From the NCBI GenBank assembly GCA_965224085.1, contig CBDCYI010000005.1, forward strand, positions 192,001-256,000: 64,000 bases of DNA, given 5' to 3'. Positions 5,788-62,913 of the stretch are shown here, one piece after another. Each line of letters begins with the position of its first letter. Position 1 is the stretch's first letter. The notes below the pieces were generated by a model, which made no database searches, was not told where the DNA came from, and saw only the letters and a program-made list of their open reading frames with translations. Origin of the DNA: Candidatus Marinacidobacterales bacterium. GTDB taxonomy: Bacteria; Acidobacteriota; Vicinamibacteria; Marinacidobacterales; SMYC01. The position numbers and the translations under genes are program-made.

Positions 5788-6186
5788 GTTGTCAGTTATC
5801 CGTACCTGGATCCGCCCACGGAGTGCGCGGCCACTGTTTGCAGCGCCGCCGCGTCAGGATAAAACAAATCAAGCCATAGCCGCACCCCGTCAGAGCCTCG
5901 TCCGCAAGCTCAGGAACCGTGTCACACGGACGCGGCGGGCGCATCACGTATGACGGTAAAGTGCATTTCTGCCCTTTCATCCGCGTCGAGGTCGAGGGAT
6001 TTGCGGAAGCAAAAGCCTGTCCGCGATCTGGAAGCGTTATGTCGAGCTTCGCAAGAAGCTCCTAGAGCGCGGGATCTTCCCGGTGTGCCAGCGCTGCTGC
6101 TAAAGTGGAGCTCGATTATTCGGATCAAGAAGTCTTTTCGAAAATGGAAATCGCCGAGATCCCAGTCTAGCGTCCCTTAACTTCCA

Positions 6187-6731
6187 GTGAACAACCACCG
6201 CCTAGAAGGCGGTGGCTTCAAGGGCTGTCAATTGGAAATTGACTGTCGTCGTGAAGAGGCTCGCCATCCTGGGAGTCTATGTACTCCTTTACCATCTCGT
6301 CCGTTATGCTTCCTGAACTCACCGCCAGATATCCTCGGGCCCAGAAGTGCCGGCCCCAAAACTTCTTCCTCAGGTGAGCAAACTCCTGAAGGAGTACTCG
6401 GGAGCTTATTCCTTTTAGCCACTGCACGATCGTACTCAGGTCCTGGTGTGGTCGGTAGGATACGAACACGTGGACGTGGTCGCGTGCAACCTTACCCGAG
6501 ATTATGTGCAGCTCATGTTCCATCGCGATCTGACGAATCAGATCGCGCACACGAACCGCTACTGGACCGATCAAAACCTTTTTACGGTATTTCGGTATCC
6601 AAACGATGTGCGCTTTTAGGTCCGTTTTCGTGTGCGCTCCGTGCCTGTAGTGACGCACGCGACCACAATACCACGATCTTCTCTTCGCCTAAAGGCGAGG
6701 GGTTTCGACCATCCCCGGAAGAGACACTAAT
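6187..6731 (-). mobile_element. IS200/IS605-family element (tnpA only)
   Basis: Subterminal hairpins AACCACCGCCTAGAAGGCGGTGG (6193-6216) and TCGCCTAAAGGCGA (6686-6699) flank tnpA; the minus-strand right end reads ...TTCAC. Boundaries approximate. Confidence 0.8.
6218..6658 (-). CDS. tnpA: IS200-type Y1 HUH transposase
   Basis: HIVWIPKYR, DHVH (HUH), LKGISSR, FWARGY and EYI motifs. Confidence 0.93.
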   Translation of the reverse strand: MRHYRHGAHTKTDLKAHIVWIPKYRKKVLIGPVAVRVRDLIRQIAMEHELHIISGKVARDHVHVFVSYRPHQDLSTIVQWLKGISSRVLLQEFAHLRKKFWGRHFWARGYLAVSSGSITDEMVKEYIDSQDGEPLHDDSQFPIDSP

Positions 6732-57768: not shown

Positions 57769-59433
57769 ATGGATCCCGTAACTCGCAGCGTTATTGGCTA
57801 CGCCATGAACGCTATCGCCAAAGAGATGGGCGTGAACCTCTACCAGGCGGCCCACTCCACCATCGTTCGGGAAATCCGTGACATCGGTACGGCCATCTTC
57901 GACGCCGAAGGCCAGACCGTGGCGATGGCTCACTGGATTCCCATGCTTTCCAATGCCCTGGAGCCGGGCATGCAGGCCGCCATGCGGCACTATGACATCA
58001 GAGCCCTGCAACCCGGCGAAGCACTGTTGACGAACGACCCTTTCGATGGTGGGCAGCACGTGAACGACATTCTCCTATTCACGCCCATCCACTTCGCCGG
58101 CCGAGTCATCGCCTATGCCTGTGCCAGCGCTCATCACCTTGATGTAGGCGGTGCGGCACCCGCCTCCTACGCCGGAGCCACCGACGTATATCAAGAAGGT
58201 ATTGTGTTCCCCCCGATAAAAGTCGATCTGGGAGGGAACTGGACGGAAAGCGTCTTCGGCAAGATCTTCCAGGCAAATATACGCGCACCGGACAAGTCCA
58301 TTCCTGACTTTGACGCTCAGATTGCCGCTTGCCGCACCGGCGATAGGCGCATCCTCGCCCTGATCGAGAAATACGGCGTTGACACTATTCAGGATTTCAT
58401 GAAGGAGATCGAGGTGTATTCCGAGCGGGTAACCCGCGCGTCTATTGCCGAGATCAGAGACGGTGACTATCACGGTGAAGCGTACATGGAAGACGACGGG
58501 ACCGGCTCCGGTGGACCTTTCACCATTCGGCTTGCGGTGCGCGTAAGAGGGGACGAGCTGGTGGTGGATTTCAGTGGCACCGACCCTGAGGCCTCCGGTT
58601 TCATCAACATCCCCCTGGCATCCACCTACTCGACGGTTCGCACGACGATCATATCCATCCTTGGCATCGAGCTTCGCCACGTCAGCGCCGGAGCCTTCCG
58701 GCCCATCAGGCTCGAGACACCTCTGGGAACCCTGGTGAATCCCAGACGTCCGGCTGCCACCCGTGCCCGCACCAGCACATGCTACAGGATTTTCGATGCG
58801 ATCAACCTTGCCCTGGCGCCGGTCTTGCCCCACCAGGTGGCGGCGCCGGGTTTCGATAGCCAGACAGGCGTCTCGTTCGCCTACCGGAGCGAAGAGGGCA
58901 TCGCCATTCTCAGTGAGGCGATAGGCGCCGGTAATGGAGGCATGTACAATCAGGACGGTGCTGACGGTATGATCATGCACCTGACCAACGCCACCAACAC
59001 CCCAGTAGAAGCGGTCGAGATCGAATTTCCCTTTCTAGAAGTGCTTCACTACCGCCTGGTCAAAGACAGTGGCGGTCCTGGCAAGTTCCGGGGGGGGATG
59101 GGCATCGAGCGAGCCTTTCGCACGAGGGCGGGAGGTGTGACCTTCGGCCTTCATTCTGATCGCCATCACCACAGTGCCCCCGGGCTTTTTGGCGGCCACT
59201 CTGGCGCCTCCGGTCAGTGCGCCGTGGTTCGCGAAGGCAAGGAAGAGGTATTGGGATCCAAGGTGCACACCACGCTCAACAAAGGCGATATCCTGACCGT
59301 TCGCACGGGCGGAGGGGCAGGCTATGGCCTACCGGAAGAGCGGGACCCCCAGCGGATCCTCCAGGACCTGCGTGAAGATAGAATCTCTCAGGAAGCCGCT
59401 CTCCTGTATGAGCACTTACCTCGCGAGAGCTAA
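57769..59433 (+). CDS. hyuB: Hydantoinase B / oxoprolinase C-subunit
   Basis: NDPF.GG.H..D, HH.DVGG, QEG, DFSGT, DSGG.G..RGG and GG.GYG motifs. Confidence 0.92.
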   Translation: MDPVTRSVIGYAMNAIAKEMGVNLYQAAHSTIVREIRDIGTAIFDAEGQTVAMAHWIPMLSNALEPGMQAAMRHYDIRALQPGEALLTNDPFDGGQHVNDILLFTPIHFAGRVIAYACASAHHLDVGGAAPASYAGATDVYQEGIVFPPIKVDLGGNWTESVFGKIFQANIRAPDKSIPDFDAQIAACRTGDRRILALIEKYGVDTIQDFMKEIEVYSERVTRASIAEIRDGDYHGEAYMEDDGTGSGGPFTIRLAVRVRGDELVVDFSGTDPEASGFINIPLASTYSTVRTTIISILGIELRHVSAGAFRPIRLETPLGTLVNPRRPAATRARTSTCYRIFDAINLALAPVLPHQVAAPGFDSQTGVSFAYRSEEGIAILSEAIGAGNGGMYNQDGADGMIMHLTNATNTPVEAVEIEFPFLEVLHYRLVKDSGGPGKFRGGMGIERAFRTRAGGVTFGLHSDRHHHSAPGLFGGHSGASGQCAVVREGKEEVLGSKVHTTLNKGDILTVRTGGGAGYGLPEERDPQRILQDLREDRISQEAALLYEHLPRES

Positions 59434-59462
59434 CCACTACGGCCAGACCGTGAGCTCGGTTA

Positions 59463-59501
59463 ACCATGAAATATTAACATGCGATATTAATATTTCATGG
59501 T
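59463..59501. repeat. Perfect 15-bp AT-rich inverted repeat with 9-bp spacer
   Basis: ACCATGAAATATTAA-CATGCGATA-TTAATATTTCATGGT. Confidence 0.9.
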
Positions 59502-59675
59502 AAATAAAACCTCTTGAACTAAGCCGCTCGCGCGGCGGCGGGACCTGCAAGCTCTCCCGAACTGGTGAGCCAAACTGGGGGCATTTTGCCTGCGCCTTTT
59601 TCGCCGCAGCCCATCGCCCTTCCAGGGAATCACGGCGCGCAGGTCGTGTCAAGGGTTTCGCGCGCTTCGCGCGCC

Positions 59676-59836
59676 GCTGGAAATGTTGGATTGGCTGGGG
59701 CAGTGCGGGTTGCACGATTGCTGCGCCGCCCTGGAGGTTGCGCGAGACGCGGTGTTCGGCACGGCCACGAGCGAATTGCTGGAAATGTTGGATTGGCTGG
59801 GGCGCGGTTGCACGATTGTAGCTGCGCCGCCCTGGA
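59676..59836 (+). repeat. Two ~60-bp imperfect direct repeats (period 102 bp)
   Basis: GCTGGAAATGTTGGATTGGCTGGGGC..GGTTGCACGATTG..CTGCGCCGCCCTGGA at 59676-59735 and 59778-59836. Confidence 0.88.
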
Positions 59837-60157
59837 CACGACCTACGCGCCGTGATGCGAGTCACTATGGGCGATGGGCGGACGGGTGCCTCCGGCAGGG
59901 GCTCCGGACTCCGGGTTTTGCACGGCAAGCCAGCCGCGGTGAACTCACTCGCCTCTAACCCGTTTCCCTTGTTTTTCCGGGCCACGGGAGCCAGAAGGGA
60001 TTAAGGAGGACGGCTTCGCCGTCGTCTTCATTCGTTCGATCTTCGCTCCGGACAACGAGTCCTGCGTTTCTCGGAACCGCTCTCTCACACATGGCATCAT
60101 CCCTGTCCCCCGCGGGCGGCGATGGTCGTCGTCTGCTAAATCACTGGAGGAATAATC

Positions 60158-61018
60158 ATGGGATGCCTTAGCGAAAAAATGCTTGCCGACATGAAACTGA
60201 AGGGGTTCGCACGCTCCACGCAGGAGGAGTATCTGCTGCGAGCGCGCCATTTCGCGGCACATTACATGCGCTCACCCGCCGAGATGGGCGAGCCGGAGAC
60301 CCGCGATTATCTGATTCATCTCGTTAACGAGAAGAAGGCCTCTCCGGCCAGCCACCACATGTACGTCGCCTCTCTCAAGTTTCTCTACGCAACCACACTC
60401 AACCGCCCGGAGGAGGTGGCGAAGATTCCTTGGCCCAAGAAACCTCGAACGTTACCCGATATCTTGAGCGGCGAGGAGGTCGATTGTTTGCTTCACTCCG
60501 TTCACTCCGTCAAACACCGCGCGATTCTCATGAGCGCCTACGGCGCCGGGCTGCGCGTTTCCGAGGTGTGCTGTCTGAAGCACTCCGACATCGACTCCAA
60601 ACGCATGCTCTTGCACATTCGTCACGCCAAGAACTCCAAGGCCCGCTATGTCACGCTCAGCGAACGTTTGTTGAGCTTCCTGCGCTACTACTGGAAAACC
60701 ACTCGCCCTCGCGGAGAGTACTTGTTTCCCGGCCGTAATCCTGGTGCCCACATCTCAGACGATGGCGTTCGCTGGGCTCTTCGTAAGGCCGTGGCTGAGG
60801 CGGGGCTCACCAAACGTATCACTCCTCATTCGCTGCGCCACGGTTTTGCCACACATATGCTCGAACTGGGTGAAGACATTCGTACCGTGCAGCAACTGCT
60901 CGGTCATGCCTCCATCCAGACCACGGCCCGTTACACAAAGGTAACAGCAAAGCACTTGGGGCGCATCAAGAGCCCTCTCGATTTGCTGGGAACGAAGAAG
61001 GGCAAAAAGCTCGGCTAG
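60158..61018 (+). CDS. Tyrosine recombinase (N-terminal SAM domain, integron/Xer-like)
   Basis: GLRVSE, HSLRH, QQLLGH and TARY catalytic motifs; GGAGG RBS. Confidence 0.93.
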   Translation: MGCLSEKMLADMKLKGFARSTQEEYLLRARHFAAHYMRSPAEMGEPETRDYLIHLVNEKKASPASHHMYVASLKFLYATTLNRPEEVAKIPWPKKPRTLPDILSGEEVDCLLHSVHSVKHRAILMSAYGAGLRVSEVCCLKHSDIDSKRMLLHIRHAKNSKARYVTLSERLLSFLRYYWKTTRPRGEYLFPGRNPGAHISDDGVRWALRKAVAEAGLTKRITPHSLRHGFATHMLELGEDIRTVQQLLGHASIQTTARYTKVTAKHLGRIKSPLDLLGTKKGKKLG

Positions 61019-61024
61019 CTCATC

Positions 61025-62272
61025 ATGCAGCCCCATGGGCTGTGTCCTTCCCGCGTCGAGTCACCACCACGGCCACTGCTCGAGATCGCGGAAATCTTCC
61101 GCGAACATGGTCCACGCTTTCGCCAAACCCATGCGCTGACAGCCGAGCAGCGCAAGGTGATGTGGGCTATAGAGAACTGTCGCACGGCGGTGCTAGGTGG
61201 CCATCTCGACGTGTGTAACGCTTGCGGATACGCGGCGCCTTCGTTTAACTCGTGCCGCAATCGGCACTGTCCCAAGTGTCAGAGCCTAGCCCAGGCGAAG
61301 TGGATGGAGCAGCGAGCTCAGAGGATTCTTCCGACTCACTATTTCCACGTCGTTTTCACCCTCCCGCAGCAACTCAAGCCTCTCGCCCGAGACAATCCCA
61401 AGTTCATGTTCAACCTCCTGTTTCGCGCCGCCTCGCGAACTCTATTGGAGTTCGGCCAAAGCCGGCTCGAAGCTCAACTTGCCTTCACCGCCGTACTGCA
61501 CACCTGGACCCGGAAGCTCCTGTTCCATCCACACCTGCATTGCATCGTCTCCGGGGGCGGGCTCAACCACCCTCAGCAGCTGTGGAACGCCGCAAACCCT
61601 CGCTTTCTGTTTCCCGTCAAGGCCATGTCGCGGCTTTTTCGCAGCAAGTTTCTCGATGCCCTTAGGCTCGCTTACGACCAAGATGAGCTTGAGTTGAGCG
61701 CAAACGCTTCCCACCTCAGAAACCCACCTCGCTTCCGGGAGCTGAAAGACAAGCTCTACCGCATCGATTGGGTCGTTTACAGCAAACGACCCTTCGGTGG
61801 CCCAGAGCAGGTTTTCAACTACCTCGGCCGATATACCCACCGGGTCGGCATCTCCAACCGCCGACTCATTCGCATCGACCACTACGGCGTCTGCTTCGCC
61901 ACCAAGAATGGTAATACCGTTACCGTCCCCCCAGAGGAATTTATCCGCCGTTTCCTCCTGCACGTACTGCCGAAAGGTTTCGTCAAGATTCGCCATTTCG
62001 GCTTAATGGCCTCCTCCAATGCGACCACCAAGCTCGTAGTCGCGCGCCAGTTGCTCGATGAGAAAACAAAACCCACGACCGACGCCGACGACGTGCAAGT
62101 CAGCTCGCGTGCCACCGAGGACAAGGACTGGCGCGAGCGGCTCAAGGAGCTCACCGGCATCGACCTCACCATCTGTCCCCGCTGCAAGAAAGGTCGCATG
62201 CTCCGATGCCCTCTCTCCACGAAGCTTCGACGGATCAACCTCCAGATCCGCTCCCCTCCAGATGAGTCATGA
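61025..62272 (+). CDS. IS91-family rolling-circle transposase
   Basis: Zn-binding CNACG..SCRNRHCPKCQ, HUH HPHLH, Y2 motif YLGRY, HVLPKGF..IRHFG. Confidence 0.93.
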   Translation: MQPHGLCPSRVESPPRPLLEIAEIFREHGPRFRQTHALTAEQRKVMWAIENCRTAVLGGHLDVCNACGYAAPSFNSCRNRHCPKCQSLAQAKWMEQRAQRILPTHYFHVVFTLPQQLKPLARDNPKFMFNLLFRAASRTLLEFGQSRLEAQLAFTAVLHTWTRKLLFHPHLHCIVSGGGLNHPQQLWNAANPRFLFPVKAMSRLFRSKFLDALRLAYDQDELELSANASHLRNPPRFRELKDKLYRIDWVVYSKRPFGGPEQVFNYLGRYTHRVGISNRRLIRIDHYGVCFATKNGNTVTVPPEEFIRRFLLHVLPKGFVKIRHFGLMASSNATTKLVVARQLLDEKTKPTTDADDVQVSSRATEDKDWRERLKELTGIDLTICPRCKKGRMLRCPLSTKLRRINLQIRSPPDES

Positions 62273-62507
62273 TCACGATGCTTTCGCTCCGCCTCTCACA
62301 ACGCCGACCGGTCGTTGAAACGGACTCGTGTGTCTCGTCGCGAACTCATAACGCTACCGTGGTGGTTACCGCACCGGGTAGGCCCTTCTTCTATCTTCCC
62401 CGCCATATCTCTGTCGATTCGCAACTCCCTGACGTCCAACTCCGACTTCCTGTCCGACCGTCTTCTCACTCCAATTTATGCATAGTTGCCGCTAGCTGGG
62501 CGGCTTA

Positions 62508-62600
62508 GTTCAATTACGGTTTGCACGAATGCTCGCTCTACAAGCATCGTGCCTCGCGTAACGCCGTGCTTCGCTCGATTCCTGCAAACCGCTATTAATT
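62508..62600. other. attC-like imperfect hairpin
   Basis: GTTCAAT-ta-CGGTTTGCAcGAAT ... ATTCcTGCAAACCG-ct-ATTAATT. Confidence 0.55.
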
Positions 62601-62913
62601 TCTCGGAAAGTGCCAGACCATTCCTTGATTAAATCATGTCTACTCCGTGGAAGTCTACAACGAGAACAAGACCTACAAGGGGAAGCATATATCCGACTGG
62701 GGCGGGGATCTCGAGGTTCCCGTGCTGCTCATGTGGAGCCAGCCTGGCTCGAGGGTGGAGTGGGGCCTGAAACACTTCTTCAAGGCCCCCGGGGCCGAGA
62801 TGCGCATCCTCCCGTGGTCTGGGCACCACCTCTTCACGGATCAGAGCGATAGATGGGTGCAGGTCGTGACCAACTGGCTGCAGAACGACTCCGCCCGTCC
62901 CCCGAACCCGTGA
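62597..62913 (+). pseudogene. C-terminal fragment of an alpha/beta hydrolase
   Basis: LEVPVLLMW...AEMRILPWSGHHLF.DQ.DRW...V.NWL; N-terminus absent. Confidence 0.6.

Follow-up and report, generated by a model that had tools for sequence, protein, structure and literature searches.

An IS91-family insertion sequence with an integron/Xer-like tyrosine recombinase in a Candidatus Marinacidobacterales genome: exact ends, target sites and a proposed division of labour between two enzymes

The stretch of DNA considered here, referred to as the window, comprises 64,000 nucleotides of contig CBDCYI010000005.1 from the genome of a Candidatus Marinacidobacterales bacterium (assembly GCA_965224085.1, hereafter G000). 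Between positions 59514 and 62598, the window harbours one copy of an insertion sequence (IS) of 3,085 bp, which associates a rolling-circle transposase with a tyrosine recombinase of the integron/Xer type. The element is a member of the catalogued integrase-carrying branch of the IS91 family, the mechanism of which is undescribed. Its insertion is exact and devoid of any target-site duplication, as revealed by the empty sites of related genomes and strains, with at most a TT shared between element and target. Taken together, the ends and the landing sites suggest that insertion, including the choice of the site, is the work of the recombinase and not of the transposase. We lean, with some reserve, towards a reading in which a circular form of the element, probably single-stranded and produced by the HUH enzyme, is integrated by the recombinase of the element. 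The insertion sequence is recently active, and G000 contains six full copies, all at least 99.78% identical, together with one nearly full copy and about 12 fragments. The features of the window copy are the following:

59504..59513, plus strand: target DNA left of the insertion, ATAA (59504-59507) and a 6-nt spacer, based on 12 independent left flanks.
59514..62598, plus strand: whole mobile unit, delimited by 13 left and 13 right junctions and by empty sites.
59514..59536, plus strand: left end, terIS-like, made of TTGAAC, TAA and a short hairpin GCCGC-TCGC-GCGGC; same layout in eight other families and in an IS1294-like control.
59677..59820, plus strand: 144-bp insert, present in the window copy only; the joint 59676->59821 is seen in all four public runs.
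60158..61018, plus strand: Xer/IntI-like tyrosine recombinase of 286 amino acids (PF00589, 1.2e-41; PF13495, 2e-14).
61025..62272, plus strand: IS91-family Y2 HUH transposase of 415 amino acids (PF04986, 6.3e-55; PF14319, 3.4e-31).
62488..62516, plus strand: internal inverted copy of the left end, i.e. hairpin GCCGC-TAGCTGG-GCGGC, TTA, GTTCAA and TTA, recognized from sequence and fold.
62517..62591, plus strand: stem B hairpin with 14-bp arms, one C/C mismatch and a loop of 47 nt, found in every one of the 13 right ends.
62592..62598, plus strand: 7-nt tail CTATTAA leading to the right tip; when the tips are joined, CTAT is bulged and TAA pairs with 62514-62516.
62599..62600, plus strand: target TT, shared with the left tip of the element, based on the right flanks and on the single TT of the empty site.

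The ends were defined by aligning 13 left and 13 right junctions in G000. On the left side, the conservation begins at TAAGCCGC in all 13 copies, preceded by GAAC in 10 of them and by TT before GAAC in nine of these 10, while the tip of the remaining three is occupied by a 543-bp IS200-like element. On the right side, the conservation stops at GCTATTAA in 12 of the 13 right ends. Taking into account the TT common to element and target, the alternative bounds 59516-62600 are also possible. The first-pass annotation of this region, made from the letters alone, had described a tyrosine recombinase coupled to a Y2 transposase and followed by GTTC and by a hairpin framed with AAT and ATT, all of which are found where it placed them: GTTC occupies 62508-62511 and AAT 62512-62514, followed by TA and CGGTTTGCACGAAT (62517-62530), and the 47-nt loop is followed by ATTCCTGCAAACCG (62578-62591), CT and ATT (62594-62596). 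The attribution of the hairpin to the integrase-carrying element is supported by its occurrence in 13/13 right ends. However, since the right-hand conservation runs to GCTATTAA, two nucleotides beyond ATT and up to 62598 instead of ending at GTTC or ATT, the hairpin is internal to the element and stops 7 nt before the right tip, and the GTTC previously considered as the flank of an IS91 ori end is internal; no right flank, out of 13, begins with GAAC or CAAG. The stretch 62500-62513 corresponds to the exact reverse complement of 59514-59527, so that the left tip (TTGAAC-TAAGCCGC) recurs here in inverted orientation over 14 nt. Considered alone, the hairpin region (62500-62605) is unexceptional in its folding, with z values of -1.2 on the plus strand and -1.5 on the minus strand, and it is the presence of the hairpin in all of the right ends, its better conservation than the spacer in an 82% identical relative and the occurrence of a hairpin of different sequence at the same place in 8/8 other families that raise it beyond chance.

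The empty sites place the element/target junction at TAA|TT, between 62598 and 62599. The junction is an A|TT, as proposed earlier, but it lies 4 nt to the right of the A|TT between 62594 and 62595 that was put forward. The copy located at C5:390790-393739 interrupts an open reading frame (ORF) that reads, from its translated flank, as Ser/Thr-kinase-like. This site is empty in the same-genus genomes G001 and G004, which read GGAAG-AG-AGGTCG where G000 reads GGAAG, then the element (TTGAAC...GCTATTAA), then AAAGGTCG, and the excision of the intervening DNA restores the reading frame exactly. Because this empty site lacks TTGAAC, the hexanucleotide travels with the element and is not a target tetranucleotide, which rules out the GAAC of the left junction as a canonical target. 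The site of the window copy is empty in G002 (...AATAAAACCTC-TT-TCTCGGAAAG..., with a single TT), and the contigs of two public runs from other strains, X2 and X3, join 59513 directly to 62599, with two ambiguous letters. The depth at this empty joint equals that of the single-copy flanks (24.9 vs ~27 and 10.2 vs ~11 for X2/X3), so that the window insertion is recent and polymorphic. The element was not found in the four same-genus genomes searched (G001-G004), and a search of these genomes for the sites of the C5:571692 and C9:172355 copies in an empty state gave none, the flanks there being repeats or diverged.

Relatives were collected by searching homologues of the transposase (E <=1e-30) in 301 genomes, i.e. 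a sample of 300 genomes from the same phylum and G000, and homologues occurred in 30 of them. Five multicopy families of the same phylum, G299 (5 copies), G278 (2), G270 (4), G159A (3) and G159B (3), whose transposases are 44-50% identical to that of the window, were examined, and three plasmid families from Paraburkholderia sabiae, Rhizobium sp. T136 and Sinorhizobium meliloti were added. All eight share a common plan, with a left tip (G)TTGNAC followed by [T/G]AA and a palindrome, an inverted copy of this tip near the right end, and a right end consisting of a stem of 8-14 bp with a loop of 40-60 nt, the sequence of which is family-specific, and a tail of 5-11 nt. The loss of the hairpin or of its spacing in homologous elements, which had been set as the test capable of refuting the first interpretation, was not observed in any of these eight families. 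Including the family of the window, the full architecture (left tip, inverted copy, stem B and tail) occurs in 9/9 families with differing stem B sequences, and an intact Xer/IntI-like recombinase gene is also present in 9/9. The genome G012 contains a single copy, 82% identical to the window element, in which conservation is higher over the last ~140 bp than in the adjacent spacer; as a single copy of this identity, it contributes no target sites. Beyond these families, pairs of integrase and IS91 transposase are widespread on plasmids of Burkholderiales, Rhizobiales and Clostridium.

With respect to the target, A, T, A and A occur at positions -10 to -7 in 11, 9, 11 and 11 of the 12 independent left flanks of G000, an enrichment in ATAA reached by 0 of 20,000 random site sets in a genome containing 20% A. 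The right flanks display T, T and A at positions +1 to +3 in 12/13, 10/13 and 8/13 cases, respectively, and the two sides together define the G000 target as ATAA-N6-|TT(A). The attC-like sites envisaged previously as alternative targets are not those used in G000, where the targets are simple ATAA-N6-TT sequences, one of them inside the kinase ORF. Among the plasmid relatives, CATAA or CATAG is found exactly 6 nt from the left tip in 5/11 left junctions, and TTATG directly follows the right tip in 5/8 right junctions, often within a 20-nt palindrome. In S. meliloti, the empty site found on another plasmid reads ...GACGCATAA-GAACGG-TT-ATGTGGCG..., i.e. GCATAA-GAACGG-|TTATGTGG (GCATAA-GAACGG-TT-ATGTGG), and the occupied site exhibits TT on both sides. 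The targets of the rhizobial relatives show the motif as a full CATAA-N6-|TTATG core and are located within short palindromic repeats. Core sites of the Xer/IntI type consist of two inverted arms separated by a 6-bp spacer, with insertion at the spacer/arm boundary. Judged from its letters, the target motif looks like the inner part of such a tyrosine-recombinase core (Xer/attI type), with the element inserted at the boundary between spacer and arm.

At the rhizobial plasmid loci L111, L112, L119, L120 and L126, the target has a four-arm layout, ..GCATAA-N6-..GCATAA-N6-TTATGNGGNG/CNCCNCATAA, which corresponds to a short repeat with Xer-like arms found at several plasmid sites.

In a circle or in a tandem of the element, the joint would read ...GCTATTAA directly into TTGAACTAAGCC. 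When the tips are joined in this way, TAA and TTGAAC... pair with ...GTTCAATTA (62508-62516), giving a fold which comprises a 17-bp stem A, the 4-nt bulge CTAT, stem B and the 47-nt loop. The joined tips of G000 show a z value of -7.6, as compared to -2.75 when the right end is folded as integrated, flank included. For the nine families, folding the joined tips at minimum energy gives 24, 13, 12, 3, 25, 20, 21, 10 and 7 pairs between right and left ends, i.e. at least seven in 8/9 families and three in the ninth. The bottom strand, the folding of which had been recommended as a check, adopts the two-stem fold in 9/9 families. Two stems, a bulged spacer and a variable terminal loop correspond to the layout of attC sites. 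The attC-like character assigned earlier to the hairpin thus survives in that the hairpin is part of a two-stem fold, but the cores are not the AAT and ATT of 62512 and 62594; the paired cores are instead GTTCAATTA and the combination of TAA (62596-62598) with the left tip TTGAAC (59514-59519), which come together in joined tips only. The outer boxes GTTCAAT (62508-62514) and A+TTGAAC (62598 and 59514-59519) each match RYYYAAC / GTTRRRY at 6/7 positions, once the tips are joined. The left tip TTGAAC fits TTRRRY, a match which is not general, since the family-wide left tip is TTGNAC, and TTGTAC in one family. An Rfam scan of 59400-62750, with E up to 10, retrieved mir-9080 and Betaproteobacteria-1 at chance level only and no attC-like family.

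Both genes of the element are readily assigned to protein families. The recombinase possesses an N-terminal SAM-like domain, and its best models are XerA, the integron integrase (IntI), XerC and XerD, all below their cut-offs. It reaches 193 bits with TIGR02249 (cut-off 265), the best stretch aligning residues 8-182 of the protein with 5-180 of the model, and it matches PRK15417 in two stretches, the best of which aligns residues 197-278 with positions 250-331. Since the middle of the IntI models appears to be unmatched, the recombinase seems, from these alignments, to lack the IntI-specific extra helices of the catalytic domain. This agrees with the published placement of IS91-associated recombinases in an 'Integron-like' subgroup deprived of the IntI insert (bioRxiv 10.1101/542381). 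Neither an attI site nor a cassette array occurs beside the recombinase gene, the flanks of the IS being a hydantoinase gene and a hydrolase remnant. The transposase is readily recognized by the IS91 family equivalog NF033538 of NCBIfam (407.8 bits, cut-off 125), and its translation displays the HPHLH and YLGRY motifs and an N-terminal zinc-binding domain. Six nucleotides separate the stop codon of the recombinase from the start codon of the transposase (61016-61027); in IS91 itself, orf121 and tnpA overlap by one base, according to a 2026 paper (PMC13181058).

On this basis, the element-encoded Xer/IntI-like recombinase would both excise and integrate the element, the strand exchange presumably taking place where the 6-bp spacer meets the TT arm. 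Its substrate would probably be a folded single strand, for which the attC x attI reaction of IntI offers an analogue, and the Y2 HUH enzyme would supply this single strand by rolling-circle replication. A canonical origin, i.e. a bottom-strand GTTC followed by two palindromes, would exist only after the joining of the tips, and an origin rebuilt only at the joint would restrict the rolling-circle replication to the excised or tandem form. We propose, more tentatively, that these steps form a possible two-enzyme pathway, in which an integron-like recombinase moves the element as a giant gene cassette through a folded single-stranded site present only in joined tips, the excised circle is replicated by the HUH enzyme from an origin likewise rebuilt at the joint, and insertion takes place into cores of the Xer/attI type or, in other hosts, into attC sites. 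The hybrid of rolling-circle and integron chemistry put forward previously finds an echo in the target motif, which resembles a tyrosine-recombinase core, but the assignment of each catalytic step is inferred.

Several observations weigh against an integration by the recombinase. No circle or head-to-tail joint was detected in the contigs of four public runs, although contigs drop rare forms and are in this respect uninformative either way, and no two copies abut in G000. The way in which the ends are arranged also agrees with the canonical description of oriIS and terIS (PMC13181058). The ATAA motif is absent from the 11 left flanks of G299, G159A and G159B; those of G270 and G278 fit the target motif in part. 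The site of the element and its target share TT only, the arm TTGAAC being unlike TTATG, and no CATAA-like left arm occurs within the element 6 nt from the junction. Finally, the left tip is variable in its first one or two bases, which are TC in the copy at C9:172355, TA at locus L113 and AT at locus L117, and the first base is A, G, G, G and, once, T in the five G299 copies, among copies that are otherwise near-identical. Three G000 copies read AA, TA or TC where the right-hand TT is expected, and it would seem that the TT can be left on one side of the element or on the other. Such a variation of the tips is not predicted by a single fixed exchange point.

Among the other explanations, an ordinary IS91 rolling-circle transposition performed by the Y2 enzyme alone is the one that survives best, and we consider it unlikely without dismissing it. 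The hairpin would then represent the outer palindrome of oriIS and the left end would be terIS, the bottom strand would be cut after ..AA (GTTCAA| for the end of the element, xTAA| for the targets) and not after GTTC, and the recombinase would be an accessory protein, a regulator or a multimer resolver, comparable to Orf121, which modulates IS91. In IS91 elements, as described in PMC13181058, the target GTTC/CTTG adjoins oriIS, terIS comprises one palindrome by the cleavage tetranucleotide, oriIS contains one or two subterminal palindromes, and bottom-strand circles are the inserted form, without target duplication; only four members of the family have been shown to transpose. The element follows this published layout, with its downstream palindromes at 62488-62504 and 62517-62591 fitting oriIS, its TT-GAAC-TAA-GCCGC/GCGGC resembling terIS in layout, and the absence of duplication. 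In addition, it has an intact transposase recognized by the IS91 equivalog model, and the bottom-strand flank ends with AA at 10 of 13 right junctions, like the ..TCAA end of the element. As a control, an IS1294-like element without recombinase was read in four enterobacterial plasmids; it begins exactly at GAAC followed by a palindrome and its right end abuts GAAC in 3/4 copies, in agreement with the IS91 rule of that paper. In contrast, the left boundary of the present element lies 2 nt outside GAAC and its right end is never abutted by GTTC/CTTG (0/13). Moreover, a single-strand nuclease reading a few bases located 5' of its cut leaves unexplained both the ATAA found 7-10 nt beyond the cut and the inverted CATAA-N6-TTATG cores of the rhizobial targets. 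The bottom-strand flanks of the five G299 copies (GTGAC, GATAT, GTGAA, GCTAA and GTGAC) do not match the end GTTCA, and the recombinase gene is intact in all of the full copies examined.

It is improbable that the host XerC/XerD proteins integrate the element at dif-like pseudo-sites, as they do for phage CTX, while its own recombinase fulfils some other function. The CATAA-N6-TTATG core, the inner part of Xer sites, and the insertion at the boundary between spacer and right arm would be accounted for in this way, but an intact Xer/IntI-like gene would then be left idle in 9/9 families, and the joined tips are devoid of a CATAA..TTATG core. Moreover, G000 contains 13 insertions in spite of lacking any perfect CATAA-N6-TTATG site (0 found, 1.5 expected). 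The earlier version of the ends, with GTTC 62508 as the IS91 ori boundary, the AAT/ATT hairpin outside or at the edge of the element and a crossover A|TT at 62594/62595, rests on motifs actually present in the sequence, but it is refuted by the 13 of 13 right ends that continue to 62598, by the location of GTTC within an internal inverted repeat, and by three kinds of empty site, in which the junction maps to 62598|62599 or two positions to the right of it. Nor does it seem at all credible that the hairpin, despite its position ~245 bp downstream of the stop codon, terminates transcription of the transposase gene or belongs to an unrelated family of repeats, given its 47-nt loop, the CTATTAA without T run after the stem, the lack of any Rfam match, its attachment in G000 to the element only and its place at the tip, kept in 9/9 families.

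Other observations concern the copies of the element and the DNA that surrounds them. The other copies measure ~2,940 bp, as compared to 3,085 bp for the window copy with its 144-bp insert, which is akin to an 88-bp dispersed repeat (~10 other sites of the genome, 95% identity) and also to part of the IS. The 543-bp IS200-type element (PF01797, 3e-40) also occurs at 6186-6727 of the window, with an ORF at 6218-6658 on the minus strand, and exceeds 40 copies in G000, each of them followed by TAA. It is inserted exactly in the left tip of three copies of the IS; since these three carry both alleles at 59840, at least two separate insertions into left tips took place, and their descent from one transposed composite is unsupported. 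The common left flank of the three copies was also considered as read-through DNA, an idea rejected once the flank turned out to be the IS200-like element. The latter is found, in addition, at the mirrored position 62509 of the copy at C11:1389402, and a relative of it at 62503-62509 of the copy at C4:1346. Such a hot spot beside small hairpins may indicate that the ends of the element are often single-stranded. A repeat family of ~285 bp, represented at C11:395700-395980 and at more than 50 other places of G000 with ~90% identity between copies, cuts off an old diverged fragment of the right end of the IS (C11:395980-396038), the tip of which (GCTACTAA) matches the variant of G012.

Downstream of the element, the truncated alpha/beta-hydrolase ORF (62647-62913) had been considered to begin right after ATT and to be truncated by the insertion. 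It starts at 62647 and not at 62597, and 62599-62641 is the original upstream DNA of the gene. By comparison with the 345-residue protein encoded in G002, the truncation results from a separate deletion of ~880 bp at ~62641, 43 bp to the right of the IS, which took the first ~257 codons. No joint at the place of this deletion was found in the contigs of X2 and X3, which come from strains without the window copy of the IS. Upstream, just after the hydantoinase B gene, an AT-rich perfect palindrome with 14-bp arms and a 9-nt loop (59462-59498, z -5.4) is kept in G002 at 120 bp from the insertion site, those 120 bp being missing from the window.

The integrase-carrying branch of the IS91 family is widespread and has no described mechanism. 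In the literature searched, with the texts of ISfinder and TnPedia lying outside this search, no account was found of the ends, the target rule or the mechanism of this branch, and the exact ends, a target rule differing from GTTC/CTTG and a testable two-enzyme model are, as far as searched, new. If true, the sharing of tasks by a tyrosine recombinase and an HUH enzyme would connect rolling-circle elements with integron cassettes and with the phages that exploit Xer, and such elements could move among integrons, dif-like plasmid sites and ordinary genes. The insertion rule should also help in the reading of resistance islands, because the gene pairs adjoin resistance genes, e.g. tetX-catB11 in Bacteroidota (PMC11194056), and attC sites, e.g. 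in Shewanella (PMC9229058), in passages which give no mechanism.

Compared to canonical members such as IS91, IS801, IS1294 and IS1294b, the element shares a Y2 HUH transposase with a zinc-binding N-terminus, the absence of target duplication, an upstream palindrome by a GAAC/GGAC-type tetranucleotide, downstream subterminal palindromes and an ORF closely upstream of tnpA. However, its transposase is only ~29% identical to the enterobacterial members, its right end never abuts GAAC/CAAG, its left boundary lies 2 nt further out, and it exhibits an inverted copy of the left end in its right end, an upstream tyrosine recombinase and a bipartite ATAA-N6-TT target. Counterparts with the same gene pair and a length of 2.4-2.6 kb without inserts are the ISfinder members and the pairs annotated at NCBI as 'IS91 family transposase' and 'site-specific integrase'; the IS91 members with an upstream integrase in ISfinder include ISShvi3, ISWz1, ISAzo26 and others.

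The element resembles an integron cassette by a unit that starts with TTGAAC and ends in a two-stem imperfect palindrome, by a junction N|TT, by a simple two-arm target and by a recombinase of the IntI/Xer group. Unlike integrons, it has no IntI insert, attI, Pc promoter or cassette array, and the 'cassette' encodes its own recombinase and HUH enzyme. In the case of phage CTX and other Xer-exploiting elements, an HUH initiator yields a single-stranded circle, the folded hairpin of which serves as a substrate for Xer-type recombinases, which exchange one strand at a dif-like core without duplicating the target. The layout of the folded site (CTX attP) and the integration into a dif-type core at the spacer/arm boundary are comparable, the corresponding steps being proposed here by analogy, whereas the recombinase is encoded by the element itself, the pseudo-sites are many and degenerate, and the mobile unit is a 2.9-kb insertion sequence. 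Finally, the IS200/IS605 elements (Y1 HUH, 'peel and paste') similarly carry subterminal hairpins on the two sides, are cut a few bases beyond them and cause no duplication, but they depend on another class of transposase, without a recombinase, and recognize a tetra- or pentanucleotide target on one side only.

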